Below are positions 1 to 14,433 of a DNA stretch of 64,000 nucleotides, in pieces. The notes below the pieces were generated by a model. That model did not search any database. It was not told where the DNA came from and worked only from the letters and a program-made list of their open reading frames with translations. Position numbers and translations under genes: made by a program. The stretch comes from Thermoplasmata archaeon (GTDB lineage Archaea > Thermoplasmatota > Thermoplasmata > Lutacidiplasmatales > UBA184). Where the stretch lies: positions 30,695 through 94,694 of the forward strand of contig JAKIVU010000001.1 in NCBI GenBank assembly GCA_022750375.1, read 5' to 3'. The stretch's first letter is position 1; every line of letters starts with the position of its first letter.

Positions 1-636
1 GCTCGGGTGAGCCGTGACTCCGAGGACGAGCGTCGCATCCTCCAGAACCAAGTCGACAACCTTCGGGCGTACTGCTCGAGAATCGGACTCTCCCTAACCG
101 AAGCAAACGAATTCGTCGAGATCGTTTCGGGAGGGAAGGACGACCGCCCCGAACTGAACCGTCTCCTCGCGGCCGCCAGTCTCCAACGAGGGCGGCCGTT
201 CGACGTCGTCGTGTTCACGAGCTTGAGCCGAATGACCAGGGGTGGGATCGGGAGCGCACTCTACATCCTCGACCGCCTTGCCGCCTCGAAGGTGAGCTGG
301 CACTTCGTGGATCAGCCGCTACTCAACTTCGATTCAAACACTCCAAAGCTCGCGAAGGACATCATCCTCAGCGTTCTCGCCGCCGTCGACGCGGACTACC
401 GCGACCGGATCTCCAAAGCGACGAGGGCGGCGTATCAGAGCCGAGTGAATCTTGCCGCCGGTTCCGGTACGACGGTTCGGTGGGGACGCCACAAGAAGAC
501 CTGCGTTTGCGAAAGGTGCGCGAAGCGACGCGGGGAAATGGGGTCCCCCCCTCTCCATTCTCGTCCGGGATCGGCTAAGGAAATAGGGGCTATTTCCCCG
601 ACAGCGACCCAACCCCTATCGGCTCTTCGGACGTGA
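1..636 (+). CDS. Serine recombinase (resolvase/invertase catalytic domain), 5'-truncated by window edge; Cys-containing C-terminal tail instead of an HTH
   Basis: The window opens in frame with ARVSRDSEDE (catalytic Ser context). Downstream resolvase-type motifs are IVSGGKDDRPELNRLL, VVVFTSLSRMTR and the E-helix RDRISKATRAAYQ. A C-terminal HTH is absent, which is consistent with an IS607-like or small serine recombinase whose HTH is N-terminal and upstream of the window. Confidence 0.75.
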   Translation, partial: ARVSRDSEDERRILQNQVDNLRAYCSRIGLSLTEANEFVEIVSGGKDDRPELNRLLAAASLQRGRPFDVVVFTSLSRMTRGGIGSALYILDRLAASKVSWHFVDQPLLNFDSNTPKLAKDIILSVLAAVDADYRDRISKATRAAYQSRVNLAAGSGTTVRWGRHKKTCVCERCAKRRGEMGSPPLHSRPGSAKEIGAISPTATQPLSALRT

Positions 637-890
637 TACCACCGATGGGGAACGTCTACGTCGCGGTCGGGTTCGCGGCGTTCGCGTCGGTCCTCGAGAT
701 CGTCCTCGTCGTGCTATCCGAGCCACTCTTCATCTTGGTCACGGTCGGTCTCGTACTCGTCGCGACGGACTTGCTATTCGTCAGCTGGCATCCTTACGCG
801 GTCCTCACGAGCCTCGGGATCTACATCTTCGCCGTGATCGTCGGTCTCGTCGGTTTCAGCGTGCTCGACCTCATTCTCAACGTGGTTTGA
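633..890 (+). CDS. Small hydrophobic membrane protein, hypothetical
   Basis: The 85-aa ORF is almost entirely hydrophobic (2-3 TM). Its GTG start overlaps the recombinase stop as GTGA, giving translational coupling. Confidence 0.4.
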   Translation: MIPPMGNVYVAVGFAAFASVLEIVLVVLSEPLFILVTVGLVLVATDLLFVSWHPYAVLTSLGIYIFAVIVGLVGFSVLDLILNVV

Positions 891-1255
891 GGGAGCACGA
901 AGGAACGATGAGCTTCGAAAAGGGATCCGTCCACATCGAGATCGGTTGGGCCGAACTCTCGCAAGATTCAGACCCCGAGACCAGAGTGATGCGACTCGCG
1001 ATCGACGAAATCCAGGGGAAGTTCCACTACGCCGATGACGAAGCCCAGTACGTCGCCGATGACCCGGGGTTTCAAGAGTCCTGCCGGAACGCAGTTCGTG
1101 AGGCTCGTCGCCGGCAGTATCGACTCGATCGAAAGGCTCAGCCGTTGCCGGCGGGCACCGTTCCGAACCCGGCCGCCCAGCGCTTCCGAGTCAAGATCAC
1201 TTTTCCCCGTCCCGGGACGAGAGGGATTTTTCAGAGGGTCTTGACAGAGGACTAG
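887..1255 (+). CDS. Hypothetical protein
   Basis: The ORF overlaps the upstream stop by 4 nt, with a TTG or downstream ATG (908) start. No recognisable motif. Confidence 0.3.
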   Translation: MREHEGTMSFEKGSVHIEIGWAELSQDSDPETRVMRLAIDEIQGKFHYADDEAQYVADDPGFQESCRNAVREARRRQYRLDRKAQPLPAGTVPNPAAQRFRVKITFPRPGTRGIFQRVLTED

Positions 1256-1294
1256 TTCGCCGGTACCTGTGAGCGGGACGCGATCTCCGTTCGA

Positions 1295-2230
1295 TCACTC
1301 GTCCGTCTCGGTCTCCGGCACGGACCTAATCCCCTTCGGTCCCCTGGCTCCGGCTAACGAAACGATCGCGGCTCGGTTAGCGATTTCGTAGGCCCGCTTG
1401 ATCAGTTCCGGAACGAGACCTTCGAACTCATCGATGTGTTCGCGTAACGACTTCGCGAATGCCGGAAGCGCCCGTTCGGTGGCGACCTGGACCAGGATCG
1501 ACGGCTCGGAGAAACCGATCCGCTCAACGAGGATCGAGGCGTAGCCGGGTCCGGCCTTTAGTTCGAAGTCATCACCATCGCCGAGCCGAACCTCGAACAA
1601 CTCCCCATCGAGGACGAGGACCGGGAGAACCAGTCCTCGGTTTGCGGCGCCGCCCTGTGTCGACAGAATCGCGAGAGCCGCGTCGATTACCTGAGCGACC
1701 TTATCTCGCCAGGGTTCGTCCGCCTCGGGCAAATCGTCCTTAGCCTCCCGGTCCTTTGACTTGCCGGCGTGGAATCCAACTTGCCGGATCCCGTACCCGA
1801 ATGGTGATGGGAACGTGATTAAGTTCGGCGGAACGCCCTCCTCGTCCAGGTACTCAGCGATTGCCTTCCCCATGTAGTAGGACGCCCCGGTCCAGAGCCT
1901 GGCGTCCCATTCGGCGAAGAGGCTCGAGTCCGGACCATCGTGCGGGAAGATGATCCACGGTTGGTCCGCCGAGTAGACGCACTCGAACACGCAGTTTACG
2001 GTGAACTCGACGTCGGGCGATCCCCGATGAAGGACGTCCTGCGTCCGAATGTCAATCTCGCGGAACTTGCCGGTCGACTCGCTCCGGTAGCTCGGCCACC
2101 GAGACACGTCCGAGAATCCAGCCTGCCGGAGTGTGCGAGCAGTTCGAATCTCGAGAGGATACCCGGTCTTTCTGAGCCAAGCCTCGGCCATCTTCTGCAG
2201 GTCTTCGGTCGAGGGACGCACAGTCGACAT
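1295..2230 (-). CDS. Hypothetical protein, possible restriction-endonuclease-like fold (fourth gene of a minus-strand operon)
   Basis: The 311-aa ORF has N-terminal pattern GKFREIDIRTQDV ... PDVEFTVNCVFECVYS, which resembles the D ... (D/E)xK-like beta-strand core of PD-(D/E)xK / NERD / Hjc-type nucleases without a canonical Lys. The rest is unknown. Confidence 0.45.
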   Translation of the reverse strand: MSTVRPSTEDLQKMAEAWLRKTGYPLEIRTARTLRQAGFSDVSRWPSYRSESTGKFREIDIRTQDVLHRGSPDVEFTVNCVFECVYSADQPWIIFPHDGPDSSLFAEWDARLWTGASYYMGKAIAEYLDEEGVPPNLITFPSPFGYGIRQVGFHAGKSKDREAKDDLPEADEPWRDKVAQVIDAALAILSTQGGAANRGLVLPVLVLDGELFEVRLGDGDDFELKAGPGYASILVERIGFSEPSILVQVATERALPAFAKSLREHIDEFEGLVPELIKRAYEIANRAAIVSLAGARGPKGIRSVPETETDE

Positions 2231-2317
2231 GGGTCGTGCCCGAGCCCGGAGAAGGTAGACGCCCGCATTCAGTTTGCGGGCGGCCCGTCTGTGGTAAGAA
2301 TCGGACCGTCGAGGTCG

Positions 2318-2911
2318 CTAGAGTCGAAATTTGTTGGAGACCTCTATCGGGAACGGACCCAGGTTGTACTGCCTTCCGTTGAAACTGTCGAGGTAGATGA
2401 AAATCAAAATCTCAGTAGTTCCCTCCCTCTTCGGCAATAATGAGACCTCAAGCTCCTGTTGGTCACGCCCGCTGAGAGGGAAGGTGGTGACCGGCTGATT
2501 GCTCGGGTGCAGAAGAATCTCGGCTGGCCCGAGAAGGTCTCCGTAATAGATCGCCGAAGGGTCCTTTTTCCTGGTTCGGGGAGGATCACCGTACCCCACT
2601 CCGACCGTCCTCGTTTGGCGGCCAAGGTTGTCGACCCTAAGCTGGAAGTGGACCCGTGACTGAGGGTGTACGTTCAGGTGTTTCGAGAGAACCGTAGTCC
2701 GGAGAACGTCTCCGGTACGCTCGGCCCATCTCGTTCGGAGATACTCGCCACCACCCGCCAAGATGAAAATGATGACCGAGACGATCAATCCGACGATGAA
2801 GTAAACTAAGTCAGCCGTCCCGCCCCCAAAGCTGCCAGTATCGGTCACGAGCCCACCGGATGATGGTTCAAGGAACTGGCCGGGTTCGCTTCCTGCGGGT
2901 CTTCGGAGCAC
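2318..2911 (-). CDS. Membrane-anchored hypothetical protein (N-terminal TM, extracytoplasmic C-terminal domain)
   Basis: One strong TM helix (LVYFIVGLIVSVIIFILAG) sits near the N-terminus. An alternative GTG start at 2848 would leave a 19-nt gap to the upstream gene. Confidence 0.45.
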   Translation of the reverse strand: MLRRPAGSEPGQFLEPSSGGLVTDTGSFGGGTADLVYFIVGLIVSVIIFILAGGGEYLRTRWAERTGDVLRTTVLSKHLNVHPQSRVHFQLRVDNLGRQTRTVGVGYGDPPRTRKKDPSAIYYGDLLGPAEILLHPSNQPVTTFPLSGRDQQELEVSLLPKREGTTEILIFIYLDSFNGRQYNLGPFPIEVSNKFRL

Positions 2912-3854
2912 TCGAAGGTTTCAGAGGACGGAGCGGCTTCGCCCGAGCGATGGCCCTCGCCGGTGCGGCGAAGGCCGGCTCGATCTGACTCCACGTCGCT
3001 CTGACCTTGGCCTCCACGGTAGGCTCGTCCAAGCTGGCGGTGAGTCGGTTGATCCCGTCGAACAGGTCACCCAACCCGATCACTTTTGAGATTTCGCGTA
3101 ACTCGCTCTCGTCGGGCATCGTGAACAATATTCCACCATACTTTCGGAGTCCGTCGGCTACGCCTTGAAGTGTTTTGGGAAACGGAAGCCCCTCCGGCAG
3201 CTTTTCGGGGATGCTTGTTAGCGGGGCGTCGAGTAGACTGAGGAAGACGATCGGGCGAACCGAACCCTCAGTCGTGAGCATCAGCATGGTCTTCGGGGGG
3301 AGTCTGCCATCAGCCCGAAGTAGGCCGATGGCCTTCGATAGTTGAGTCGTGTCGTCCAGCTCGACCTTCGTCATACTCTCGAGCAGGGTCCCTATCGACA
3401 GATCTGCGTCGGCAAGCGGCTCTCCGGTCTTGACCTCAGTGTGGGGAACAAGGTCAGCCGGAACGAGGAAGCCCTCGGCGGCCTCCCGCCGGAGCTTCGG
3501 AGTCAGGAACCTTGCCAGGGGCTCGTCGAGAGTCCCGGACTTCAGACTCTCGATCAGGGTCTCCTTGTCCACGCGCGCGATCCGACCGACGCCTTTCGCT
3601 TCGAGGTGGATATCTCCGGTCGGGTGGATTGAGAGTTTCAGAGGGTTCGGAACCAAACCGGGCATCATGAAGACGTAAAGACTCTCGTCGCGCGCCCGAA
3701 CAGTCTTCGTGAGTCGAAGCCCCAGTGGCGGAGAACCGTCCTTCGGCGGATTCGCCACAATCCGAAAGTCACTCTTGTCCTTGACCATCGCTTCTCCTCC
3801 CGAATCGCTACCGATCGAGACAGAACGTCGACTTGTTCTTCCGAACGATATCAT
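2868..3854 (-). CDS. Hypothetical protein with basic C-terminal tail (probable start at 3788)
   Basis: Long ORF with balanced composition. The C-terminus KPLRPLKPSSAPKTRRKRTRPVP is Lys/Arg/Pro rich. The internal Met (MVKDKSDF) at 3788 removes the overlap with the upstream gene. Confidence 0.5.
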   Translation of the reverse strand: MISFGRTSRRSVSIGSDSGGEAMVKDKSDFRIVANPPKDGSPPLGLRLTKTVRARDESLYVFMMPGLVPNPLKLSIHPTGDIHLEAKGVGRIARVDKETLIESLKSGTLDEPLARFLTPKLRREAAEGFLVPADLVPHTEVKTGEPLADADLSIGTLLESMTKVELDDTTQLSKAIGLLRADGRLPPKTMLMLTTEGSVRPIVFLSLLDAPLTSIPEKLPEGLPFPKTLQGVADGLRKYGGILFTMPDESELREISKVIGLGDLFDGINRLTASLDEPTVEAKVRATWSQIEPAFAAPARAIARAKPLRPLKPSSAPKTRRKRTRPVP

Positions 3855-4350
3855 CCGAATAATGACCTCCCCGGTTAGCCGGAGAAGCGACTACCCGGTA
3901 CGCGACGTGCCCGAACCGTTGTTCTGCGTTCCGAATCTTCGCGGTGAGATCGGGAGCCCAGTTCTTTCCTCCCCATCTCGCCGACACCTTGTTCTGCCCG
4001 CTCCTGAGCCACTCGATGACCATGCCGTCTCCTATGATCTCGAGGTTCTCGCCCGAACGAGCGGGCCGATTTTTCTCGAGTGCATAATAAACCGCGACGA
4101 AATCCGAACCCTCGTTTCCCTTCATGTACGACCCTTTGGCTGCTTGATCGAACGGAGCAAGGTCGAAGTTGACGATGTCGCTCATGGCAAGCGTGGTGTG
4201 AGACTGAAGAAACTCCCGCTCAACGGGGACGGATACAGACTCAAGCTCCGGCTCCATGGTCTCGGCCACGAAGACCATCACTCGTTCTCCGGGATCGGGG
4301 CTACCAGATGGTCCGGAGTCGACCCAAATCCGTCGTGGGCGTGGCGGCAT
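3808..4350 (-). CDS. Hypothetical cytoplasmic protein (first gene of minus-strand operon)
   Basis: 180-aa ORF with no TM. It is co-oriented and tightly spaced with the three genes downstream. Confidence 0.45.
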   Translation of the reverse strand: MPPRPRRIWVDSGPSGSPDPGERVMVFVAETMEPELESVSVPVEREFLQSHTTLAMSDIVNFDLAPFDQAAKGSYMKGNEGSDFVAVYYALEKNRPARSGENLEIIGDGMVIEWLRSGQNKVSARWGGKNWAPDLTAKIRNAEQRFGHVAYRVVASPANRGGHYSDDIVRKNKSTFCLDR

Positions 4351-4436
4351 GCTCTGACGGCGTAATCCTCGGTTGGCTATTCAAACACCCGGTCGCCGGG
4401 CGTCAAGTGCTTTAGGAGGAACCGGAGTCGGGAGGC

Positions 4437-4919
4437 ATGGATTGGGCCTCATTTGCGGAAGGGTTAGTCGCCGGGGTCCTCCTAACCACCGTAAGCGGCT
4501 TCCTCGTGAACTTTCTGCAACCGCTCGCCCTTCACTACGGGAAGAAGCTCCTCCCGTCGAAGCCGGCACAGAAGCAACAAGTGAAGGCCGAGATCGAACG
4601 CGAAGGCCCAAAGGCCGACTTCGACCTTGTCGAATCAGTAGCAAAGATTGTTGGTACCGCGCTGCAAGAGTTCGTCACAGAGATGGAACCGTTCTTCTCC
4701 GCGTGGATCCAGGCGACCAGTGGCTTCGCGACCGGCGTGAGCGCGATCGTTGTGGCCGCAGAGTTCCTCTCGGTCCTCCTGATCGGTGAGTACCTCGGCG
4801 TCGACGTTGTCGGGCTTGTGCTCGGCCTGGCCGCGAGCGTGATGGTTGTAGGGGCGATCGAAGTCGGGCTCGCAGAGCGGATGTTTCGGAAGGCGAAACT
4901 CGGACCGAACCCGAAGTAG
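4437..4919 (+). CDS. Hypothetical membrane protein
   Basis: The 160-aa ORF has an N-terminal TM and a C-terminal double TM (SAIVVAAEFLSVLLIG ... LVLGLAASVMVVGAI) with a charged middle. It immediately precedes the AAA+ gene. Confidence 0.4.
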   Translation: MDWASFAEGLVAGVLLTTVSGFLVNFLQPLALHYGKKLLPSKPAQKQQVKAEIEREGPKADFDLVESVAKIVGTALQEFVTEMEPFFSAWIQATSGFATGVSAIVVAAEFLSVLLIGEYLGVDVVGLVLGLAASVMVVGAIEVGLAERMFRKAKLGPNPK

Positions 4920-4934
4920 GACCAATTCGGCAGG

Positions 4935-5801
4935 TTGCGGGAGGACATCCAGATGAATTTCGACTTTCGACCACGGAACCTGGATGAGGTGCTGGGCCAG
5001 CCCAAGGCCGTCGCGATCCTGCGCAAGGTTGTCGCGTCGCTCAACCGGGGCGTGTCACCGTCAAACGCACTTTTCTTCGAAGGCCCGCCCGGTACCGGTA
5101 AGACTAGCACCGCGTATGCACTCGCGGGCGAGATAACGAACTCAACCGTCTGGGAGCGGAACTGTGGGGAGTCGACTGCCGTCAGTCTTCGTGAGGAGCT
5201 AGAGTCAATCGCTGGTCATCGGGACTGGAATGACGGCAACTCTCGGCTGATCGTTCTCCTTGACGAGTTCGAGCGGATCACGAAGAATGATCGGATTTCG
5301 CTTCGAAGGCCCCTCGAGCTGGCTGCCTCCCATGCACTCATTGTGATAACGGCGAACGAAGAGATTGGTGATCCCGGCCTCGAGTCTCGAACTCGGCTCG
5401 TCGAGTTTGTTCGACTTGACGATGGGGCCAGTCGCGCCCTTATCGCTCGAGTGTCCTCGCGTCTCGGTCTCCGTCCTTCGGAGGCAGCGATTCTATCCGT
5501 CATTCGGGACAGCAAAGGGGACGGGCGGGCGATTCTCGACAACATCCGAATAGTCGAAGAGGACCTCCTCGCCGAGCCCATGCCGGCACCATCTGCCGAA
5601 GAACCGCTCGGTCGGTCGAAGGGGGGTCGGAAGAGGGCCGACGTCGACGCTGAGCGATGTGCCGAGCTTCGACGACAGGGAATGTCGTGGACGCAGATTG
5701 GCAAGTCGGTGGGTCACCCGGCGTCCACGGTACGAGATCGTGTGCTCGAAAAGTACCCCGACCTAGCGGGAACCCCCTCCGGGAACCCTTCCGGAAACTA
5801 G
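4935..5801 (+). CDS. AAA+ ATPase, RFC/clamp-loader-like core fused to a C-terminal HTH domain
   Basis: Walker A is GPPGTGKTS, Walker B is IVLLDEFERI, sensor-1-like is VITANEE, and GDGRAILDNI resembles the RFC small-subunit GDMRxAxNxL motif. The C-terminal ELRRQGMSWTQIGKSVGHPASTVRDRV is a sigma-70 r4 / LuxR-like HTH. Confidence 0.7.
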   Translation: MREDIQMNFDFRPRNLDEVLGQPKAVAILRKVVASLNRGVSPSNALFFEGPPGTGKTSTAYALAGEITNSTVWERNCGESTAVSLREELESIAGHRDWNDGNSRLIVLLDEFERITKNDRISLRRPLELAASHALIVITANEEIGDPGLESRTRLVEFVRLDDGASRALIARVSSRLGLRPSEAAILSVIRDSKGDGRAILDNIRIVEEDLLAEPMPAPSAEEPLGRSKGGRKRADVDAERCAELRRQGMSWTQIGKSVGHPASTVRDRVLEKYPDLAGTPSGNPSGN

Positions 5802-5850
5802 CGAATCGGGGTTTCCGGAGGGGATTCCGGTATAGGTTTCCGGAGAGCGG
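5779..5850. repeat. Cluster of TTCCGG(A) half-palindromes including two exact GGTTTCCGGAG copies 25 bp apart
   Basis: Read directly in the sequence: tccggga(5779), ttccggaa(5789), ggtttccggag(5810-5820), ttccgg(5825), ggtttccggag(5835-5845). The cluster straddles the stop of the AAA+/HTH gene. Confidence 0.5.
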
Positions 5851-6016
5851 TCAGGCCCGCCTCCGTTCGGTCCGTTCCTTCCGGCTACGCGACGGGTCTA
5901 TCGCCTCTCGACTCTGATGTAACGTCTCACCCGGTCGGACCCCGGAGACGAGAGGACATCCGGTGAGTCGACCCTCCACGGGGAATCTGTCGATGGGGTT
6001 TCTTCCTGGCATCGAG

Positions 6017-7279
6017 CTACCTCTTCGCCGTCCGAAGGGCAACCTTCGCTCGATTGCAGAGAAGGCGGACGGCTGCGCGGGACACCCGAATTCTCTTTTC
6101 GTCAAGGAAGACCTCGACGTCACCCATCGAAAGCCTGGTCAGACCCCTCTCCTCGGCCCAAGCAACACACTCGGCGACTAGCGGTTCGATTCGGGTCCGC
6201 TCTTCTTCGGCAAGGCTCGCACTCAGGTCCATCGATAAGTCGTCTGCGATTTTCTGGACCAGAAGATCGAGAGGAGAGCCATCGTGAGGAACTCCCGGGA
6301 ATAATCCGGCCGCCGGGGCTGGTAGCTCTAACTTCGTGGAGAGGAATCGGCGGAAACCCTGTTCGATAGAGAATCGACTCGTCTCGAGCGGGCCCGGGCG
6401 CTGTTTCATCCCGGCGACGAACTCCTGAACGAACTCGTCTTTCCGAGTAGTCAGCGTCTCGAGAGCCCCCGAGTTGTCGGTATTGGGTTGCTCGTCGGCC
6501 TCTTCTTCGTCGATCCCCGCCCATTCGGCGGTCTTCAGTAAGACATGGAATTCGCCGTCAAACAGGAAGGCGAGTTCGACGAGCCAAGTCTCCCCGACGT
6601 GCTTCGCCCGCTCCGGATTCTCGTCGCCTTGACCAACTATCGCCTCGTTCAGGTATAGTACTTTGGCCCCGATCTTCTTCGCGAGAGTCAGAAATTCGGT
6701 CGCGTCCTCGCCCGACCAAGTTACAGCCTCCTCGGTCGGGAGGTTCCCTCGGAAAGGGAAGATTGGAAGCTCGGCCGCCTTACGCACATCGTCGGCGAGT
6801 TCGCTTAGGGTTCCACGATCCTTGGCCACGGTATCAAACCCGGAATGGCAGACTTCCCCTTCAAGCGCTCGGTCGGGAACTGCCCCGTCGATGACCTGGC
6901 CGCCGATACCGATGTTGAGGGCTTGGAGAAACTCGGGCGATAGACTCGAAAGGGCGAGGCGCTCAAGAGAATGCGGCTCTATCTCGACCTCAGCGTCGAC
7001 ACAGGAATCCGGCTGGACTACACGTCCCAAAAGAACGGAGGCGCTGAATGCTTCGCCCGCTCGATCATCTCCTGGATAGATGGCAACTTGCCGAAATCGA
7101 CGGTCGGCGGCGTCATGATCCACCAAACTCGCTGCCCGGATAACCTCGCAGCCGGGGATGTGACGTCGCGGACCCGATAACGGGCGGTATGAAGGTCTCG
7201 ATTGAAAACGTCGCGCGACTCGATCTCGACGATATAATCCATCGCCGGGTAGGGCGACTGGATCGTAACGTCCCACCAC
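6017..7279 (-). CDS. Hypothetical protein (start uncertain; ORF N-terminus overlaps the upstream gene by about 260 nt)
   Basis: Long ORF with acidic stretches and no recognisable motif. The true start is probably internal, since the first ~87 aa are Arg-rich and overlap ORF 7018-7809. Confidence 0.4.
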   Translation of the reverse strand: MVGRYDPVALPGDGLYRRDRVARRFQSRPSYRPLSGPRRHIPGCEVIRAASLVDHDAADRRFRQVAIYPGDDRAGEAFSASVLLGRVVQPDSCVDAEVEIEPHSLERLALSSLSPEFLQALNIGIGGQVIDGAVPDRALEGEVCHSGFDTVAKDRGTLSELADDVRKAAELPIFPFRGNLPTEEAVTWSGEDATEFLTLAKKIGAKVLYLNEAIVGQGDENPERAKHVGETWLVELAFLFDGEFHVLLKTAEWAGIDEEEADEQPNTDNSGALETLTTRKDEFVQEFVAGMKQRPGPLETSRFSIEQGFRRFLSTKLELPAPAAGLFPGVPHDGSPLDLLVQKIADDLSMDLSASLAEEERTRIEPLVAECVAWAEERGLTRLSMGDVEVFLDEKRIRVSRAAVRLLCNRAKVALRTAKR

Positions 7280-7809
7280 TCGTCCGGGTCGGGATCGAGG
7301 TACGTCCGGTATGCCCCAACAGTACCCGTCGTCGGCGCCTTGAGATTCGCCTTACGGACGAGCGCCTTTGCTTCGACAGTTTCCGGGAACATGAACCATG
7401 TAAACTTGACGTCCTTCGCGACCCCCGGTCCTAGGTTTCGAATTGCCAGTCTGGGGCCTTCCAAGCCGGGGCCAGTTGTCGGGCCAGGCGGACCGGCTCC
7501 AAGAGCTAGAGTAGCGAGCACCGGACTCGGTCGATGAGAGGCCCTGGTTGTGTCGATCGAGCTGACCGCGGAGACGAGTCCAGCGAATGCCAGCGCAAGC
7601 GTCCCGGTAGCGAGCAACGCCTCGACCTGGTCCGAGATTGAAACCGGCGGTAACCAACCCGCGGGCCAGTGCCAACCCGCATCGAGACCGAAAATCAGAG
7701 CGACAATCTGACCGATGATTGCGAGACCTAGGATCGCAGCGAACTGCGCCCGGTTTTTGTAGAGCCACTCGTCGGCTTCCCGACGACCGAGCCAATCCCA
7801 GAGTCCCAC
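7018..7809 (-). CDS. Hypothetical membrane protein
   Basis: The N-terminal region has 2-3 TM helices (FAAILGLAIIGQIVALIFGL, LATGTLALAFAGLVSAV), followed by a soluble domain. Confidence 0.45.
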   Translation of the reverse strand: MGLWDWLGRREADEWLYKNRAQFAAILGLAIIGQIVALIFGLDAGWHWPAGWLPPVSISDQVEALLATGTLALAFAGLVSAVSSIDTTRASHRPSPVLATLALGAGPPGPTTGPGLEGPRLAIRNLGPGVAKDVKFTWFMFPETVEAKALVRKANLKAPTTGTVGAYRTYLDPDPDEWWDVTIQSPYPAMDYIVEIESRDVFNRDLHTARYRVRDVTSPAARLSGQRVWWIMTPPTVDFGKLPSIQEMIERAKHSAPPFFWDV

Positions 7810-8047
7810 GTCGGCCGATTGGTGCCACCGACTTCAACCTGCCGCCGGCCTCGTCCCAGCCGAACGGAGGCGTCGGCTGTCGGAGGTGGCCGATCCGACT
7901 ACAGGGACCCGGTTTAATCCCGCACTGACCCCCAAATCGACGGCGTGGCGGGTTTTGACCCCAAAAACGGGGTGTGGGGCCCCCCGAGTCCAGAGACGAC
8001 CCCGTGTGGGTCTATTCTCGTCCCTTCCGGACCATGGGGGCCTTCGC

Positions 8048-8512
8048 TTACGGTTCGCGATTGCCGCGCTTGGCGGCCTCGTAAACGACGCCGATGATGA
8101 CAGCTGCGGCGAGCCAGCAGAGAAGCGCGAAAACGAGCGGCGAGACCCCGATTTCGGACGCGAGCCCTTCGGATAGTGTACGGTCGAACAGGAGCCAAAG
8201 TTCGATTGCGACCACCACGACGAAGACGAACGCGAAGCCGACCCAATCCGCCAGGCCCACAGACTGCCCAAGATGGATTCGAATACTGGACTTTGAAGGT
8301 ACTGTTCGATGATCGGAGGTCGTCGGGCGTTTGCAGGCCTTAGAATCGTCAGCGAGAACCTTGGGATTATGGCGGGACCGCTTTCCCGCAGTAGGAACAG
8401 AACCCGCCGGCCCTCTGGCCCCCCACTCCCCCAGGCGGGGCTGATTCGAATGGTCGGTGACGCTGCGCGAGACTTTCGCCGATGACTGGTCCCCACGGAG
8501 TTCCCGTGGCAT
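8048..8512 (-). CDS. Hypothetical membrane protein (possibly only the C-terminal about 65 aa; GTG start near 8255)
   Basis: The C-terminus has two TM helices. The 5' part overlaps the zinc-ribbon ORF in another frame, suggesting either a shorter gene or a frameshifted relic. Confidence 0.3.
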   Translation of the reverse strand: MPRELRGDQSSAKVSRSVTDHSNQPRLGEWGARGPAGSVPTAGKRSRHNPKVLADDSKACKRPTTSDHRTVPSKSSIRIHLGQSVGLADWVGFAFVFVVVVAIELWLLFDRTLSEGLASEIGVSPLVFALLCWLAAAVIIGVVYEAAKRGNREP

Positions 8513-8600
8513 TCATACGCAGAAGGAGATACCCTCGCATGGCCCGAAAGCGATTCGCGTACATTTCTAGCGGCGACACGGCCTTCAAGCTCGGCGTCAA
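8367..8600 (-). CDS. Small protein with C-terminal zinc-ribbon (GGFCSYCGKAVPP), paralog of 9241-9624 C-terminus
   Basis: The C-terminal FCSYCGK motif, and about 45 nt of DNA encoding it, is nearly identical to 9246-9294. Confidence 0.35.
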   Translation of the reverse strand: MTPSLKAVSPLEMYANRFRAMRGYLLLRMNATGTPWGPVIGESLAQRHRPFESAPPGGVGGQRAGGFCSYCGKAVPP

Positions 8601-8784
8601 GGGGATTGAGATCTACATCTCGGCCGCCGATCACCCGAACAAGAAGGAGGCAGTAGTTGGAACGCTCTTCGTCGCGAAGGCGGGGATTCGTTGGCTCCCG
8701 AAGAGAGGGAAGGCAGTCCTCAAGGGAAAGCACGTGGCGGGCTACAAAATCTCTTGGGACGAACTGACCGCGATGGTCCCGTAG
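8541..8784 (+). CDS. Hypothetical small basic protein
   Basis: MARKRFAYISSGDTAFKLGVKGIEIYISAADHPNKKEAVVG... has clean composition. ORF track entry is 8482-8784; the internal Met at 8541 is preferred. Confidence 0.35.
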
Positions 8785-8900
8785 TCGGGCCGTCCGACCC
8801 CTCCACAGAAGGGTGAACCGTCCGACGACGGAGCCGGTCCTCTGGTTCGACCTCGCGATCTAGGTATCTCCCGTTCAGCGTTCGGCGGGGATTGACGGAC

Positions 8901-9383
8901 TCACTCGTCGGGTTCTACCTTCATTCCGAGAATGTGCTTGGCGTGCCCCAGCATGACGAGAGCGCCGCCAACATCTCCGGTAGCAAAGGCTTGCTCGGCC
9001 TGAGCCAAGTATCGTCCGGCCGCCTGATACATTCGCTCCCATCCTCCGTCGTAGAGAACGGCATCGATTTTGGTCTCGAGCGTCACCATACGATGTTCGA
9101 ACTGCGTCCTTGGATCCTCGGTTTCGCGCCTCGACCGGACCATAGCTCCCCTGCTTCGGATATCGAGGGGCAACTTCAAAGAGATGTCGTTCGGCGACCC
9201 GTGCTGGACGGGCTCAGCCCGGCCGCCAGCGAGTCTAGAGTTACCGGGGCACTGGTTTGCCGCAGTAGGAGCAGAATCCACCGGCCATCTGGCCTCCAGC
9301 CCCGCACGACGGGCAAAATCGAGTTGAACCGCCGGATGGCGGCGGGGGAGGAGGAGCCGGCGACTGGTATTGCGGCGGCGCAT
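8901..9383 (-). CDS. Hypothetical protein (likely only the C-terminal ~80 aa from Met at 9140)
   Basis: The full ORF overlaps 9241-9624. The C-terminal part MVRSRRETED...GHAKHILGMKVEPDE is compositionally protein-like. Confidence 0.3.
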   Translation of the reverse strand: MRRRNTSRRLLLPRRHPAVQLDFARRAGLEARWPVDSAPTAANQCPGNSRLAGGRAEPVQHGSPNDISLKLPLDIRSRGAMVRSRRETEDPRTQFEHRMVTLETKIDAVLYDGGWERMYQAAGRYLAQAEQAFATGDVGGALVMLGHAKHILGMKVEPDE

Positions 9384-9624
9384 ACATCTGACGGTTCGCC
9401 TGAGCGGCGTTCATTGCAATCTGCTGTTGGAGGAGCATGTTGGTCTGCGCCTGTTGCTGACTCATCCTCTCGGCGTCCCCCCTCGCGGAGATCCCGGATG
9501 CGAGTAGAACGATTCCAATGATGAGTAACACAATTCCAAGCAAGATGCCGATAATAGTCACGAAGAAGACTATCCCGGCGAGCAGGAACAAAACTCCAAA
9601 GACGATTCGGACTATCCCTGCCAC
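9241..9624 (-). CDS. Membrane protein with N-terminal double TM, Gln-rich linker, poly-Pro and C-terminal zinc-ribbon
   Basis: MAGIVRIVFGVLFLLAGIVFFVTIIGILLGIVLLIIGIVLLASG then QQQAQTNMLLQQQ, then PPPPPP and CPSCG...FCSYCGKPVPR. Confidence 0.5.
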   Translation of the reverse strand: MAGIVRIVFGVLFLLAGIVFFVTIIGILLGIVLLIIGIVLLASGISARGDAERMSQQQAQTNMLLQQQIAMNAAQANRQMYAPPQYQSPAPPPPPPSGGSTRFCPSCGAGGQMAGGFCSYCGKPVPR

Positions 9625-10157
9625 GACTCCGCACCCTCGTCCCGGGTGATAATACCGTTGAGGAACCGTTCAGAGCCACCAGGTCGAATTCTCACGAGCC
9701 TCGAGAGCTCGAATCTCAGGGGCATTCGGGTGGACCGCGCAAGGCGCGAGGTCGAAGCACACCGAGCAGATGACCGGCCCGAATCTCGGGGGTCGAGGCA
9801 GAGTGGCCCTTCTCTCCTTCCCCGCCCAAGCCCTCTGGGCCTGCTCGGTATCGGACTTTCCCGATTCTTTCGGACGAGCAATACAGGTCCGAAGGCGTCC
9901 GGCGGTATGCATCTTACGCAGGTTCGCGGAAGCATTCCATCATTCAATCGGAAGTATTGCCGACGAACCGAGCCTCCGCTCTCTAAGCTGGCAGAATCGA
10001 TACCCCAGGGCTATTGTGAAGGAGGTTCGACCGCAGGGTGGCTCGGATAGCCGCTGCCCCGCATCGAGCGAACCAAAGCCTTAACGGCGCCAACAAGGAT
10101 AGGAGTCCAGCCCAGCCGGCCCGGGATCGAACGTTCCAGTGCGTGGGGGAGGTTCAG

Positions 10158-10427
10158 ATGCGCTCACCAAAACTCGCCTTTCTCATCGTATCGTGTATAG
10201 TTGTCAGCGTCGGCGTGGTGGTGTTCGTGGCGGCCTATCTCGCAGGCTGTGGGGGATCGCAGCAGACTGGCTGTCCTCCCCTAGGCTGTAACTCCGGCAC
10301 AACCGCCACTTGCGAAGCGCCACTCGTAGAGGCCGCCGGGGGCCTCCTCATCGCCTCCGGTTCCGCTATCGCCGTTTTGCTTACCGTAAGGGCGAACTGG
10401 CCACGACTCGCGCAACTCGACACCTGA
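10158..10427 (+). CDS. Small membrane/secreted Cys-rich protein
   Basis: An ATG is preceded by GGAGGT 5 nt upstream. The protein has an N-terminal TM (LAFLIVSCIVVSVGVVVFVAAYLAG), then Cys-rich CGGSQQTGCPPLGCNSGTTATC, then a second hydrophobic segment. Confidence 0.45.
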   Translation: MRSPKLAFLIVSCIVVSVGVVVFVAAYLAGCGGSQQTGCPPLGCNSGTTATCEAPLVEAAGGLLIASGSAIAVLLTVRANWPRLAQLDT

Positions 10428-10503
10428 TCGAATCAGAGTTCCACATAACACGATGTGCACCGGTAACCGGACGGCGATCTTTCAGTTTGGACCGGAGCGT
10501 CAG

Positions 10504-11925
10504 CTATGTGACGATCAAGGACCAAAACGTGAGATAAGTCTCACCGTTTGATTCGACGGCGTAGAGGGCCATGAGGTAGGTGCCAACGGCAAAACCCGAT
10601 GGCAGGCTCACTATCATCTTTGCATTTGGAAGGTAAAAGTAAGAATCTGCCTGCACAGTCGAGGATGCCGGTGAAAAGGAGACGTCACCGCAGGGGACAG
10701 AGCAGAAGTTGTATTGGTAGCTCACCGGAAAACCGTAGGAAGGGTCCGCCAACGGGTCTATCTCGGCGTCAATGACGCGAGGAGCAGTATTGCTAACCTG
10801 GACTGTAAATTCGCCGTTCCCAAACCACGTCCCGACCCACGAAGCGAAGTTTTCGTTGGAGATATTCACTTCATTGTATGGACTGTTCCAGAATGATTCA
10901 TACTGGCCCGGGAAGCCTGTCGGCGGGCTGACGCTGTATGTCGTCCAAGAAATTTGGTAGGCAGCTGAGGGAGGCGTTTGCGCGACGATTGACGTGTGTA
11001 AGTTAAACGCAGGCCATGCCTCAACAGGATTATTCCCATAATCCTCTTCGTAATCTGTAAAATCGTCCCAGGCAACGATGGGATTCCAGCACTCCTGTGT
11101 ATAGTCTGCCAACACGAAACTCGTTCCCCCGGTGTACCAGGTTCCTGATCCGATAACCGTGCCCGCACCATTGGGACCCTGAACCTGGAAGGAAACTGTG
11201 CCGCCAGAGATCGACATAGTAAACCGGTATGACTCAGAATATGCGAGTGGGCCGTACGAGAAGGAGTAGTACGTTGTAGCGCAACTCCACCACCCCACCA
11301 CGCCGAACGAGAAATATGCGCACCAGTTGCCCGTGTTGTAGCACGGACTCGAGGTCTGACTAACCGACCACTGACCGCCCTGGCTTCCCGCGCCGACGAT
11401 TCCCATCTGGTCGTAGACGTATCCATTGTCGAAAACCGAGGCGCCAATGAAAACCGTGTCACCTTCGGACGAGCTTTGTGGGGTCGTTATGTTAAAAGTC
11501 AGTTTTGTCACGTAGAAGGCCATACCGTGACTATCAAGCGACCCGAACTTCCAGTCACCAGGGCCGCCACCCGAGGTCACGGCGGACTGGCCAAGAAGAT
11601 GCGATGTGGCGGGTCCGGAGAATCTCGGCGGACCAGAATAGGCGGGAGCGACGACCGACGGACCTGTCTCGTTGTCTCCTCCATCGGCCATGGCGGTCTC
11701 CTTTCCGTGATCCAGAACTGAGGAGTTCGTTTCGAGATTTACGCGGTCAAGAGTAGAGGACTTCTCGATCCCGGAATCTGTATGGTCCGCCGAAGGAATT
11801 TGGACCGGAAAATCCCGTGCATTGCTCGCCTCGCCGTAGCCGCTACTGACGACGAAAAGCACCGCGAGCGAACAAATGGAGAGGCCCACAACTAGGGAAC
11901 GGTGCGACTTCGAACGAGCCGCCAC
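10504..11925 (-). CDS. Secreted aromatic/Ser/Thr/Gly-rich beta-type protein (speculative: glutamic-peptidase/thermopsin-like or lectin-like)
   Basis: It has an N-terminal signal/anchor (LVVGLSICSLAVLFVVSSG). 473 aa rich in W, Y, S, T, G, and it carries many N-x-S/T sequons. VAWDDFTDYEED is faintly reminiscent of the G1 peptidase WIVEDF motif, but this is unverified. Confidence 0.55.
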   Translation of the reverse strand: MAARSKSHRSLVVGLSICSLAVLFVVSSGYGEASNARDFPVQIPSADHTDSGIEKSSTLDRVNLETNSSVLDHGKETAMADGGDNETGPSVVAPAYSGPPRFSGPATSHLLGQSAVTSGGGPGDWKFGSLDSHGMAFYVTKLTFNITTPQSSSEGDTVFIGASVFDNGYVYDQMGIVGAGSQGGQWSVSQTSSPCYNTGNWCAYFSFGVVGWWSCATTYYSFSYGPLAYSESYRFTMSISGGTVSFQVQGPNGAGTVIGSGTWYTGGTSFVLADYTQECWNPIVAWDDFTDYEEDYGNNPVEAWPAFNLHTSIVAQTPPSAAYQISWTTYSVSPPTGFPGQYESFWNSPYNEVNISNENFASWVGTWFGNGEFTVQVSNTAPRVIDAEIDPLADPSYGFPVSYQYNFCSVPCGDVSFSPASSTVQADSYFYLPNAKMIVSLPSGFAVGTYLMALYAVESNGETYLTFWSLIVT

Positions 11926-12171
11926 CTGTTGGCATAGGCCTTTCGTCTATTTCAACCAATGACGAAGGGGCCGATTTTCAACGGTCTGGAGCGAAGTTCA
12001 GATACGTATGGAGTCGTGGGCACTTGACCGAGGTGGCCTTCGAGTTCGAGATCGCGGTTCGGCTTTCTTCGGAATAACAGCGCGACACCCAAACGCGGAC
12101 TGGGCATCAAAGAGCGCCACAGAAAGGCCCCGGACAGAGGTCACCGGTTTGAGTCAGGTTTAAGCGCCTTT

Positions 12172-12783
12172 GTGGGCTCCGAGAAGAATCCGGTTGTTGG
12201 GTACGGGACACCGTGCGGAACGGGGTTTAAGAACTCTATGGAGCAACAGTACCGCATGGAGTTCGCGGCGGGGTTGCATGCCCAAGAAGTGCAACGCATC
12301 TCCGCGGGCGATGCAATACGCGCCGTGCTCATCTGCCCCGACGGCGAGCAGGACGGTCGGCTGACGTTCGGCGCGCCTATTCCTGGGCGGACGAGATTGA
12401 TGAAGGAGCTATTTCTGGTGTCTCGGGAAACAGAGGTGGGCCAGGCTGGGGCATTCGGATTCGAGTTCACTCCGGGCCCTTACGGTCCCTCCTCAGTGGA
12501 GGTCCAGCATGAACTGGACCGATTGACGACCATAGGCGACGTGCTCCAGGACCCACTCGAGCGTGGGGACGGGACACTCGTTCGAATCTCCGAGAGGGGG
12601 TACGAGTGGGCCAGATCTATCTGGTCGGCGCTCCCTCCTGAAACGGCGCGTGGGTTCTACTCGATCAAATCTAGATTCAATCAGGTTCCGTATGCCGCGC
12701 TGATGTTCTACGTTTACTCTGCCTACGCAGAATTCACTGCGAATTCGAGGATCCGAGAAGAGGTCCTGGGCCCTCACGCATGA
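12172..12783 (+). CDS. Hypothetical protein with Panacea (DUF4065)-like segment; candidate antitoxin
   Basis: RLMKELFLVSRE ... FGFEFTPGPYGPSSVEVQHELDRL resembles the Panacea/SocA-like pattern (KLxKLLYxxD ... FEAWxYGPVxPEVY). The likely start is Met at 12238. It overlaps the downstream gene by 4 nt. Confidence 0.4.
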   Translation: MGSEKNPVVGYGTPCGTGFKNSMEQQYRMEFAAGLHAQEVQRISAGDAIRAVLICPDGEQDGRLTFGAPIPGRTRLMKELFLVSRETEVGQAGAFGFEFTPGPYGPSSVEVQHELDRLTTIGDVLQDPLERGDGTLVRISERGYEWARSIWSALPPETARGFYSIKSRFNQVPYAALMFYVYSAYAEFTANSRIREEVLGPHA

Positions 12784-13553
12784 CACCCCCCGACCCCGCG
12801 CTCGTCGGCGCGTTGGTCGTCGCGGCAATCGGAGTATCGGCCGACATCTATTTCCTAGGGGGTGCGAAGTTCGCCCGACAATACGAGAAGGAGAGCGAGG
12901 AGTTCTACAAGGAGAATCATCAGGTTTGCCGAGACATGGACGAACTCGCTGGCGTCAGCTTCACGAGGGCGTTGATTACTTCCGAACTTTGGAGAATCGG
13001 AACCGTGGGGACACCGGTTGGCGATCCGTCCGATGAAGAAACGAGGATTCAGGCCCTCGAGGTTAGAATTCGGCAAAGCTCAGGGAAGGTGCGGACCGAC
13101 TTGGACAATCTAACGACTCAGTTCCGGACCAGGACCGGGAACAAAGAGAAACTTGAGAAGCTGCTCTCGTTGTACGAGAAGTGCGCCGGATTGACGAAGA
13201 AGGCCTGGGCATCCTTCGCGATTCTGATCTCCGCCCTCGCAATCATGTTTGCGTGGTACGTTTCCATTCCGAATGGTGTGAATTCAACCTGGTTCGTCCT
13301 CTTGGGGTTGGCGGCATTCGTCGCGGGAGCGGTCACATTCGATGCGGCAACGGATTGGCAGCGTGACAGCGCTGCTCTAAAGAAGTGTAAGACCGAAATT
13401 AAGACAACCATTCGCACGAAGATTCACTTCCCGGAGTCAGACGTGGCGGGCCTTCAAGCACCACCTGCCGCGCCAAGGCCCGCGCCTGTGGGCGCCGTGG
13501 GACCGGCGATGGGACCGACCCCCGATTCTGGAGCCGGGAAAACCGGGCACTAG
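12780..13553 (+). CDS. Membrane protein with coiled-coil middle; candidate toxin partner
   Basis: It has an N-terminal TM (ALVGALVVAAIGVSADIYFLGGA), a charged coiled-coil, and two further TM helices (ILISALAIMFAWYVSI, FVLLGLAAFVAGAVTF). It is translationally coupled (ATGA) to the upstream ORF. Confidence 0.45.
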   Translation: MTPPDPALVGALVVAAIGVSADIYFLGGAKFARQYEKESEEFYKENHQVCRDMDELAGVSFTRALITSELWRIGTVGTPVGDPSDEETRIQALEVRIRQSSGKVRTDLDNLTTQFRTRTGNKEKLEKLLSLYEKCAGLTKKAWASFAILISALAIMFAWYVSIPNGVNSTWFVLLGLAAFVAGAVTFDAATDWQRDSAALKKCKTEIKTTIRTKIHFPESDVAGLQAPPAAPRPAPVGAVGPAMGPTPDSGAGKTGH

Positions 13554-13662
13554 GTCGGGAAGGTCAATCCCTCCCGCCGATCGACGCCTATCAGTTCTCG
13601 AGGCGCCAATTCAATCATGGCGGCGATTCACTTTAGGACTGCGAAAGCGAGACTAAGCTAAG

Positions 13663-14433
13663 CTACAGGCCCGATTCCCGGACGGGCGACCGTTCCTTAA
13701 TCCCTTCTGCCCTCGACGGGCGCGGCGGGCTGCCGGCGGACGCGATGAGGTGCGCGAGGCGGAGTGGCTCGGGCCAGTATCCGCGGACCGTCGTACGCTG
13801 GACGAGCCTCGTCGCGTCGGTCGCGCGGCACCCCACGGCCGCGGCGAGGATCGGCTGCTCTCCCGTCGGGACACGAAACAGCCGATGAGCGCGGAGCAGC
13901 TTCCAGCGACGATCGGCGTCCGTCCCGAACCAGGTCCGAAGCGCGGCGTGGATGCGGGGAAAATCCGGGGGCCGTCGCGTGACCGCGACGACCGGGATCC
14001 CCAGCGCTTCGTGGAGTCGGTCGAGGTCGAGCACGTTGAACCCGCCGACCACCGCCCCATCGACGAGCAGGGCCCGGATCCCGTCGATCGCCGAGGTCGA
14101 CCGCACGAGCGCGACGACCGCTTCCGTGCCGTCCGTCCCGTCCACGCGGACCCGGGAGCGCCGCACCGCCTCGACGTAGGAGGGACTCGATACGACCACG
14201 GCGGCGATCGGCGCGAACGCCTCGCCTCGTCCGAACGCGCCGTCGTCGACCCCGACCACGCGGGGATGATCCTTCGCGAGGGACCGCCTCAAGGCTAAGA
14301 CAGGGGCGGAGCTTGGTCGGGGCGCATGGCGGGAACGACGGTGGCGGTCCGCTGCCCGGTCTGCGGGGCCGACCTTCGGGTCTCCCTCGCGGCGCAGCCT
14401 CCGACGCAGTGGTTTCCTTGCCCGCAATGCCAT
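13663..14433 (-). CDS. DUF99 / UPF0215 family protein (endonuclease dU-like); true start probably near 14298
   Basis: VVGVDDGAF near the N-terminus is the DUF99 hallmark. The length is consistent with the family. The first ~45 aa (Arg-rich) would overlap the divergent gene and are probably not translated. Confidence 0.55.
   Translation of the reverse strand: MALRARKPLRRRLRREGDPKVGPADRAADRHRRSRHAPRPSSAPVLALRRSLAKDHPRVVGVDDGAFGRGEAFAPIAAVVVSSPSYVEAVRRSRVRVDGTDGTEAVVALVRSTSAIDGIRALLVDGAVVGGFNVLDLDRLHEALGIPVVAVTRRPPDFPRIHAALRTWFGTDADRRWKLLRAHRLFRVPTGEQPILAAAVGCRATDATRLVQRTTVRGYWPEPLRLAHLIASAGSPPRPSRAEGIKERSPVRESGL

Follow-up and report, generated by a model that had tools for sequence, protein, structure and literature searches.

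What function may be served by two overlapping genes at the edge of a low-GC island in an archaeal genome, the first encoding a small soluble protein and the second a protein with three hydrophobic helices? The question is raised by a stretch of 64,000 nucleotides (the window; positions 30,695 to 94,694 of contig JAKIVU010000001.1, assembly GCA_022750375.1) from a metagenome-assembled genome (MAG) of a Thermoplasmata archaeon, in which two open reading frames (ORFs), here called ORF-A and ORF-B, correspond to the NCBI entries L3J68_00250 and L3J68_00255. An earlier reading of the same DNA (the original prediction) had named them as candidates for a Panacea-domain antitoxin and its membrane toxin. 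It is proposed here that the pair constitutes an antitoxin-first, PanAT-like (type II-style) toxin-antitoxin (TA) or abortive-infection (Abi) cassette carried on an integrated mobile element, and this proposal, taken together with its full mechanism, is considered probable rather than assured. The frames from which it starts, 12172-12783 and 12780-13553 (257 aa), are present on the plus strand with the peptides quoted from them, RLMKELFLVSRE and FGFEFTPGPYGPSSVEVQHELDRL, and they overlap in an ATGA as had been described, the ORF-A stop TGA occupying 12781-12783 and the ORF-B ATG 12780-12782. Homologues of both proteins exist at 40-75% identity. When the two genes are compared with the homologous pair at locus L001, the substitutions in ORF-A number 95 at codon position 3 against 33 and 20 at the other two positions, and those in ORF-B 140 against 64 and 35. 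Because substitutions concentrate in this way at third codon positions, ORF-A and ORF-B are real coding genes of the plus strand, and both are under purifying selection.

The first step toward an answer is the identity of ORF-A, which is soluble and acidic (pI 5.1) and has no 19-residue window with a mean Kyte-Doolittle hydrophobicity of 1.5 or more. The original prediction had likened it to the Panacea (SocA/DUF4065) domain and had named PF13274 as the model by which this could be judged. That search fails, as hmmscan against Pfam returns no PF13274 match at E<=10; neither Pfam nor NCBIfam gives any family match, and PHROGs matches an unannotated family only. The likeness itself is nevertheless upheld by remote homology. 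A word-indexed search of 5.8 billion clusters found five close homologues besides the window protein, and an exhaustive hidden Markov model (HMM) search with the alignment of this close family returned 1,157 proteins at E<=1e-3, 171 of them at E<=1e-10. Among the best 148 of these relatives, 45 match PF13274 SocA_Panacea at E<=0.01 (best 6e-7), and ten longer relatives, picked for a two-stretch profile match, all match PF13274 from end to end below its gathering score of 25.7 bits. In plasmids, tblastn with ORF-A finds haloarchaeal genes annotated as SocA domain-containing TA antitoxin or as DUF4065 domain-containing (E 2e-8, 4e-5 and 1e-3). BLASTP aligns ORF-A with WP_049938427.1 of Haloarcula marismortui plasmid pNG400 at 29% identity over 144 aa (E 2e-16); this protein scores 25.4 bits against PF13274, just under the cut-off, and has been named as a DUF4065 homologue and entered as a PanA in Dataset S1 of Kurata et al. 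(2022; PMC8832971). When the ORF-A family is aligned by hhalign with eight archaeal PF13274-type proteins, among them QIO25564.1, which at 29.8 bits exceeds the cut-off, the match extends over 155 columns with a probability of 99.8% and an E-value of 3.4e-28. The Gly-Pro of the ORF-A motif YGPSS is invariant in the close family and at least 90% conserved in 149 superfamily members, and corresponds to the GPV motif described for Panacea (PMC8832971), with Ser rather than Val as its third residue.

Structure prediction leads in the same direction. The AlphaFold2 model of ORF-A has a mean predicted local distance difference test score (pLDDT) of 86.9 and a predicted template modelling score of 0.83, and places the Gly-Pro motif in a strand (E77-79). 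Its top matches among solved structures (Foldseek against the PDB), at ranks 1 and 2, are two chains of the C-terminal domain of Mycobacterium tuberculosis DarG, 7yk3_D (E 3.3e-4) and 7yk3_B (E 6.7e-4), with a probability of 1.00 over 162 columns, although the template modelling (TM) score is only about 0.49. DUF4065 proteins have been reported to be homologous to this same DarT-inhibiting domain of DarG (PMC13621843, 2026). As modelled, the fold of ORF-A is a PadR-like winged helix followed by a C-terminal helical bundle. In the absence of a PF13274 match in ORF-A or in its ten nearest relatives, membership is to be understood at the level of the superfamily and not by the Pfam criterion, and ORF-A very probably belongs to a highly divergent branch of the Panacea superfamily, archaeal for the most part, which the Pfam model in its current form fails to detect.

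Several further matches of ORF-A may be recorded for their own sake. In PADLOC it aligns with the N-terminal third of the model of a candidate-defence protein, PDC-M19A (E 7e-8). A second PADLOC model, 554 positions long and built for type I restriction specificity subunits, is matched over its last 120 positions (E 2e-4). The two matches hint at Panacea-like domains fused to, or embedded in, defence proteins; a literature search on PDC-M19 yielded nothing useful. At one related locus in a Hadarchaeota MAG (L023, 2458-3774) an ORF-A-like domain lies inside a 438-aa ORF, possibly as a fusion, without a close downstream partner. The closest viral structures to the ORF-A model in BFVD are uncharacterised Sulfolobus virus proteins, namely SSV4 A8TKI0 (E 9e-6, TM 0.57-0.62) and proteins of SEV1 and SPV2, and these model-based matches suggest that Panacea-like domains occur in crenarchaeal viruses.

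ORF-B was originally described as having an N-terminal transmembrane helix, a coiled-coil and two further transmembrane helices. Three hydrophobic helices are indeed found, as three 19-residue windows reach a mean Kyte-Doolittle value of 1.5 or more, with peaks at aa 8-26, 145-163 and 172-190. The coiled-coil, however, is unverified, because AlphaFold2 renders ORF-B as all-helical with low confidence only (pLDDT 44.7). The distribution of charges suggests a topology in which a short N-terminus lies outside, aa 28-142 are cytoplasmic, the loop IPNGVNST is a tiny outer loop, and the basic tail returns to the cytoplasm; three cysteines, Cys50, Cys135 and Cys203, do not vary within the close family. 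The search of 5.8 billion clusters yielded five ORF-B proteins, that of the window included. Nothing in Pfam, NCBIfam, PADLOC or PHROGs is matched above family threshold, the ORF-B profile finds only noise and no relative among PDB sequences, and tblastn of ORF-B against plasmids gives nothing at E<=1. As judged by its sequence, the ORF-B family is an undescribed one. Over ten aligned sequences of ORF-B-type downstream partners (alignment A5), a weak match to PF24838, the "8xMP, octameric membrane protein family", was seen in two (best E 5e-4), and the literature on 8xMP provided nothing useful.

The association between the two proteins is the next step. In all five further loci that carry a close ORF-A homologue (L001, L002, L003/L004, L005 and L006), an ORF-B homologue follows with the identical 4-nt overlap, and the pair recurs in two more distant loci, so that the conserved pairing by which the original prediction was to be judged is borne out, the A-then-B order and the overlap being kept in L001-L006. 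At the first of the distant loci (L010) ORF-A is 39% and ORF-B 24% identical, the ORF-B HMM scoring 41.8 bits (z = 26.5 against shuffled sequences); at the second (L021) ORF-A is 46% identical and ORF-B scores 19.4 bits with the close-family profile (z = 10.8) and 44.2 bits with a wider one (z = 22.1). By the definition of a locus used by Kurata et al. (two genes, a gap of at most 100 nt, at least two species), ORF-A and ORF-B form one. When the ORFs were compared all against all by BLASTP, A and B proved to be the only ones common to the window island and the other loci. The genes around the pair vary from locus to locus, with integrase, resolvase, ParB and Prim-Pol among them. Because only these two genes are shared while their surroundings change, the pair moves as a cassette among mobile elements.

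Relatives of ORF-A are, further, found with unrelated partners. The downstream gene encodes a PIN protein (PF01850) at L011, a soluble family of 162-164 aa with a weak NucS_C-type match at two Haloarcula loci (L013 and L018), a 168-aa soluble family in Methanobrevibacter and Methanofastidiosum (L025-L028), and another soluble protein at L022. Such partner swapping is a hallmark of Panacea antitoxins, and is termed "hyperpromiscuity" by Kurata et al. (2022; PMC8832971). A PIN identity had also been considered for the partners at L022 and L025-L028 from N-terminal Asp motifs and was not adopted, as searches of PDB sequences gave nothing and the recorded PF01850 match is that of L011 only. With regard to the Haloarcula plasmids, the soluble partner on pNG400 lies 7 nt downstream of WP_049938427.1 (L013, 2944-3958), and at L018 (2492-3429) the partner begins within the stop codon of the SocA-like gene, with 1 nt in common; the partners are 52% identical between the two plasmids. 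WP_049938427.1 was entered in Dataset S1 as a PanA with "no_PanT" (PMC8832971), and the 162-164 aa protein is likely its unrecognised partner.

An ORF-B-type layout adjoins ORF-A-like genes in 16 loci. The same partner architecture, in which an N-terminal hydrophobic helix (sub-threshold in a few cases) is followed by a charged helical stretch of about 100 residues, a pair of hydrophobic helices towards the C-terminus and a short tail, occurs at L007, L008, L024, L030 and L031, on two Halorussus plasmids (L014, 3448-4032; L019, 3027-3542) and on the Arthrobacter sp. AK-1 plasmid pSI-1, where it lies beside a relaxase (L016, 3037-3639). Homology of these look-alikes to ORF-B was not demonstrated by hhalign or by comparison of HMM scores with shuffled sequences; in the latter, L014, L019, L024 and L031 reach z-values of 2.6-4.3, within their own shuffle maximum, the others remain below 2, and homology is clear for L010 and L021 only. 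For the look-alikes, the claim made from sequence is accordingly one of shared architecture.

The upstream end of the operon departs from what had been predicted. Across six close loci (the window, L001, L002, L003, L005 and L006), counted by hand from an alignment of the upstream DNA and from the protein alignment, a TTTA(A/T)G box is followed exactly 30 nt downstream by an ATG (four loci) or a GTG (two loci) that aligns with M1 of a 175-aa protein. In the window this codon is the ATG at 12256, which is also the NCBI start call; an ATG at 12238 and the GTG at 12172, which opens the longer frame, are the in-frame alternatives. The start at 12172 given by the original prediction is thus probably 84 nt too far upstream, as the conserved box and the NCBI call favour 12256, and the GTG is probably an over-extension because the promoter box would then fall inside the gene. 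In several loci (P0002, P0003, P0004 and P0006) gene callers likewise start ORF-A too early, so that the frame runs across the promoter. The function of the box is read from general archaeal promoter geometry, by which the operon mRNA is likely leaderless or nearly so. A 10-nt inverted repeat, GAACTCTATG / CATGGAGTTC, at 12231-12240 / 12255-12264 is 90% complementary, spans the predicted starts of transcription and translation, and is a possible operator candidate; it is recognisable only in the window and in its closest relative, L001, and is not apparent by eye in L003.

Taken together, these data allow a model of the cassette to be constructed. ORF-B, made by translational coupling, would insert into the membrane by its N-terminal anchor and its C-terminal hairpin, leaving some 115 charged-helix residues and the basic tail in the cytoplasm. 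ORF-A would bind this cytoplasmic part directly, most likely at aa 28-142, and would block either oligomerisation or opening of ORF-B in the membrane. Upon loss of ORF-A, whether through loss of the element, proteolysis or an infection-induced shut-off, ORF-B would be freed to depolarise or permeabilise the membrane, and the resulting arrest or death of the cell may stabilise the element, abort virus infection, or both. ORF-A may in addition auto-repress the leaderless operon through its winged helix. To our knowledge, archaea of this lineage lack ClpXP, and a SocA-type mechanism, in which the antitoxin acts as a ClpXP adaptor, would for this reason be unlikely and direct sequestration likelier. 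There are precedents for such a scheme. Three validated PanT toxins, E. coli T3, Bartonella T12 and one from Helicobacter, target the membrane, and that of Helicobacter, with transmembrane helices at its C-terminus and a coiled-coil-like region at its N-terminus, depolarises without large pores; complexes of PanA with PanT have also been demonstrated by pull-down (PMC8832971). The passage of PMC13621843 that cites Deep et al. (2023) describes inhibition of the toxin by the DarG C-terminal domain through direct binding.

A number of observations weigh against this model. ORF-A lacks the PF13274 match noted above, and its ten nearest relatives likewise give none at E<=1, showing weak generic winged-helix matches only. 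ORF-B bears no similarity to characterised toxins in the family libraries, PDB sequences and plasmids that were searched, and there is no structural evidence for pore formation, because its model is unreliable. Eight of the 25 PanT candidates examined by Kurata et al. were not toxic in E. coli (PMC8832971), and genomic arrangement alone therefore over-predicts toxicity. The ORF-B copy at L002 (6591-7500) carries two frameshifts beside an intact ORF-A; these may reflect long-read assembly error, as the contig name suggests long reads, or decay, and are uninformative. Because toxicity, binding and trigger are deduced, and because of the eight non-toxic candidates, the model as a whole is held with the restraint stated at the outset.

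Two other explanations of the locus must be considered. ORF-A may be a transcription factor of PadR/MarR type whose target is a non-toxic membrane protein of the mobile element, made from the same transcript, with no TA relationship between the two; conceivable roles of ORF-B would then include superinfection exclusion, signalling, and functions in the envelope or in transfer. It is in keeping with this that MarR and PadR regulators are the best structural matches of the ORF-A model after DarG, that the superfamily profile matches PadR/MarR chains of the PDB at E 1e-3 to 1e-1, the PadR chains at E 0.007-0.1, that 15 of the best 148 relatives match PF03551 PadR (E<=0.01; ORF-A itself has no match) and 14 match DUF4364, and that the inverted repeat overlaps the predicted transcription and translation start. 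However, the winged-helix matches are all weaker than that to DarG, those of the ORF-A model trailing 7YK3 at E>0.04, and are confined to the recognition helix and wing; the C-terminal helices of ORF-A (YVY..YP....S) are common to PF13274-type proteins and not to PadR. The inverted repeat is restricted to the window and L001, as described. Further, the exchange of partners (PIN, small soluble proteins) and the movement of the genes as a unit are typical of TA modules rather than of a regulator with a regulon. DNA binding by ORF-A would, moreover, be compatible with an antitoxin function, so that the two are not mutually exclusive, and an explanation by regulation alone is regarded as unlikely.

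An alternate scenario would make ORF-B a SLATT-like, two-transmembrane, pore-forming suicide effector and the pair mainly an antiviral Abi system, in which ORF-A acts as sensor or gatekeeper and not as part of an addiction module. Its basis is a set of weak but register-consistent matches over the C-terminal hairpin and its flanks: NCBIfam SLATT_1 matches aa 139-208 (E 0.4) and, at E<=1, four of the ten aligned partner sequences (best 0.045), and PADLOC RTasSLATT matches aa 145-212 (E 0.019). The similarity of ORF-A to PDC-M19A (E 7e-8) and the location of the pair on mobile elements, where defence genes cluster, agree with such a role. However, the SLATT_1 score of 10.6 bits is far under the cut-off of 41, the PADLOC model is matched by one of the ten aligned sequences and the Pfam SLATT families by none, and hydrophobic hairpins draw spurious matches, unrelated membrane families being scattered through the Pfam scan. 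In addition, no SMODS, SLOG, reverse-transcriptase or other nucleotide-signalling gene adjoins the pair in the window or at related loci, and ORF-B has no match to the partner model of PDC-M19. The link of ORF-B to SLATT, drawn from sequence scores, is thus an unconfirmed lead that is kept as a rival and not adopted, and the scenario built upon it appears improbable. Finally, the view that the pair is an inert remnant, or consists of chance ORFs in GC-rich DNA without joint function, is effectively refuted, for while high-GC DNA yields many long spurious ORFs and the family is rare (five ORF-A homologues besides the window protein and five ORF-B proteins, window included, in 5.8 billion clusters), both frames show the third-position excess, the proteins are conserved down to 24-40% identity along with the overlap and the promoter box, and the AlphaFold2 model of ORF-A is confident (pLDDT 86.9).

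The coordinates of the features on which the PanAT-like reading rests are collected in Table 1.

Table 1. Annotated and predicted features of the ORF-A/ORF-B cassette, in coordinates of the 64,000-nt window.
Feature	Position	Strand	Basis
TATA-like box TTTAAGA, 30 nt upstream of the ORF-A start	12226..12232	+	TTTA(A/T)G invariant across six aligned loci
ORF-A, putative antitoxin, 175 aa; divergent Panacea (SocA/DUF4065)-superfamily winged-helix protein	12256..12783	+	
Approximate Panacea-equivalent core of ORF-A, aa 48-156	12397..12723	+	Inferred via BLASTP to WP_049938427.1, whose residues 30-149 match PF13274 positions 1-109
Invariant Gly77-Pro78 of YGPSS, predicted beta strand	12484..12489	+	Counterpart of the Panacea GPV motif
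ATGA, overlap of ORF-A stop and ORF-B start (translational coupling)	12780..12783	+	Same 4-nt overlap in L001, L002, L003/L004, L005, L006
ORF-B, putative toxin/effector, 257-aa membrane protein	12780..13553	+	
ORF-B hydrophobic helix 1, predicted N-terminal membrane anchor, aa 8-26	12801..12857	+	Kyte-Doolittle 19-residue mean 2.15
ORF-B charged helical region, aa 28-142, predicted cytoplasmic; invariant Cys50 and Cys135	12861..13205	+	Low-confidence model, conservation, charge counts
ORF-B predicted C-terminal helical hairpin, aa 143-163 and 170-190, loop IPNGVNST	13206..13349	+	Hydrophobicity
ORF-B basic amphipathic tail with KIHFPE..V.GLQ.PP motif, then proline-rich, poorly conserved end	13350..13550	+	Alignments; 7 K/R in aa 190-215

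The surroundings of the cassette agree with the original placement of the pair at the right edge of an island. The GC fraction, 0.56-0.62 over roughly the first 13,000 positions, is 0.64-0.72 from 14,000 on; among the genes of the low-GC part (1-13600) are those of a serine resolvase (7-636) and an AAA ATPase (4935-5801), and the first gene to the right of the pair is the housekeeping-type Endo_dU (13663-14433, minus strand). The left end of the island lies outside the window. Most of the scanned island ORFs have no family match. By eye, a 473-aa ORF at 10504-11925 (minus) looks secreted, and a 127-aa ORF at 9241-9624 (minus), judged from its sequence alone, has hydrophobic stretches as well as Cys-rich ones that resemble a zinc ribbon. 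When the window was searched for a direct repeat of att type that would match the right edge of the island, a 12-mer was all that came up, and a tRNA search of the window found none. Rfam gave nothing at gathering score, its sole match at E<=1 being a sub-threshold CRISPR-DR (E 0.85), and no tandem repeats were found in 11800-13800.

We know of few TA or abortive-infection modules that have been characterised in archaea, and of no protein toxin that depolarises an archaeal membrane. It is possible, although this is put forward tentatively and is more doubtful than the model for the window itself, that ORF-B-type proteins constitute an undescribed, fast-evolving class of membrane-depolarising toxins or Abi effectors of archaeal membranes, always guarded by a Panacea-like protein that HMMs miss, and carried on mobile elements of Thermoplasmatota, Halobacteria and at least one actinobacterial plasmid. 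If this is true, surveys based on Pfam substantially under-count archaeal PanAT-like systems. A whole archaeal branch of Panacea is invisible to PF13274 at any rate, as only one in three of the 148 best relatives attains E<=0.01, and the structural comparison lends independent support to one fold in Panacea and in the C-terminal inhibitor domain of DarG. With products of 175 and 257 aa, the cassette is a small, portable, two-gene candidate. What is new here is the Pfam-invisible antitoxin branch and the undescribed family of membrane partners. The type of system is already known, because archaeal PanAT loci, including some from Thermoplasmata, are in Dataset S1 of Kurata et al., and the gain is incremental in that the system type, the promiscuity of partners and the membrane-toxin variants have already been described for bacteria.

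Comparison with known systems helps to place the locus. SLATT proteins, which Burroughs and colleagues are said to have treated in 2015 as two-transmembrane effectors of conflict systems, resemble ORF-B in having a two-helix hydrophobic hairpin flanked by helices, in the register in which the sub-threshold HMM matches fall. However, these matches score far under threshold and have no counterpart with the Pfam SLATT models; ORF-B, moreover, possesses an additional anchor at its N-terminus and a long helical stretch, and has no nucleotide-signalling partner. The SocAB system of Caulobacter is a type VI TA system, in which SocA delivers the toxin to ClpXP and SocB targets the replication clamp, not the membrane. 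SocA is, on the other hand, the founding member of the antitoxin domain superfamily to which ORF-A is assigned (PMC8832971). The C-terminal domain of DarG (7YK3) is the top solved-structure match of ORF-A and has in common with it the local motif F.PG.YGP.S..V, and inhibition of a toxin by direct binding is a feature of DarG according to the passage of PMC13621843 in which Deep et al. (2023) are cited. ORF-A differs from DarG in sequence (12-15% identity, with the TM score only about 0.49) and, at 175 aa, has no macrodomain; beside it stands a membrane protein instead of a DarT-like ADP-ribosyltransferase. With PanAT, finally, archaeal loci of which, including Thermoplasmata loci with ParE-type toxins, were already predicted in Dataset S1 (PMC8832971), the differences are that ORF-A lies outside the PF13274 model (no match at E<=10) and has an N-terminal helix and a hairpin with a CPDG motif, and that ORF-B has 257 aa, three hydrophobic helices and a family without likeness in Pfam, NCBIfam, PADLOC or PHROGs. 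The likenesses are a two-gene operon with the antitoxin first and the genes overlapping, homology of ORF-A to PF13274-type proteins over the full length of the domain, the Gly-Pro strand motif among the shared features, relatives of ORF-A with unrelated partners in the same slot, and predicted transmembrane helices in ORF-B, as validated PanTs include membrane-depolarising proteins with C-terminal transmembrane helices. The locus is thus most simply filed with PanAT, for although it fails the Pfam threshold, it passes the other tests that were run.

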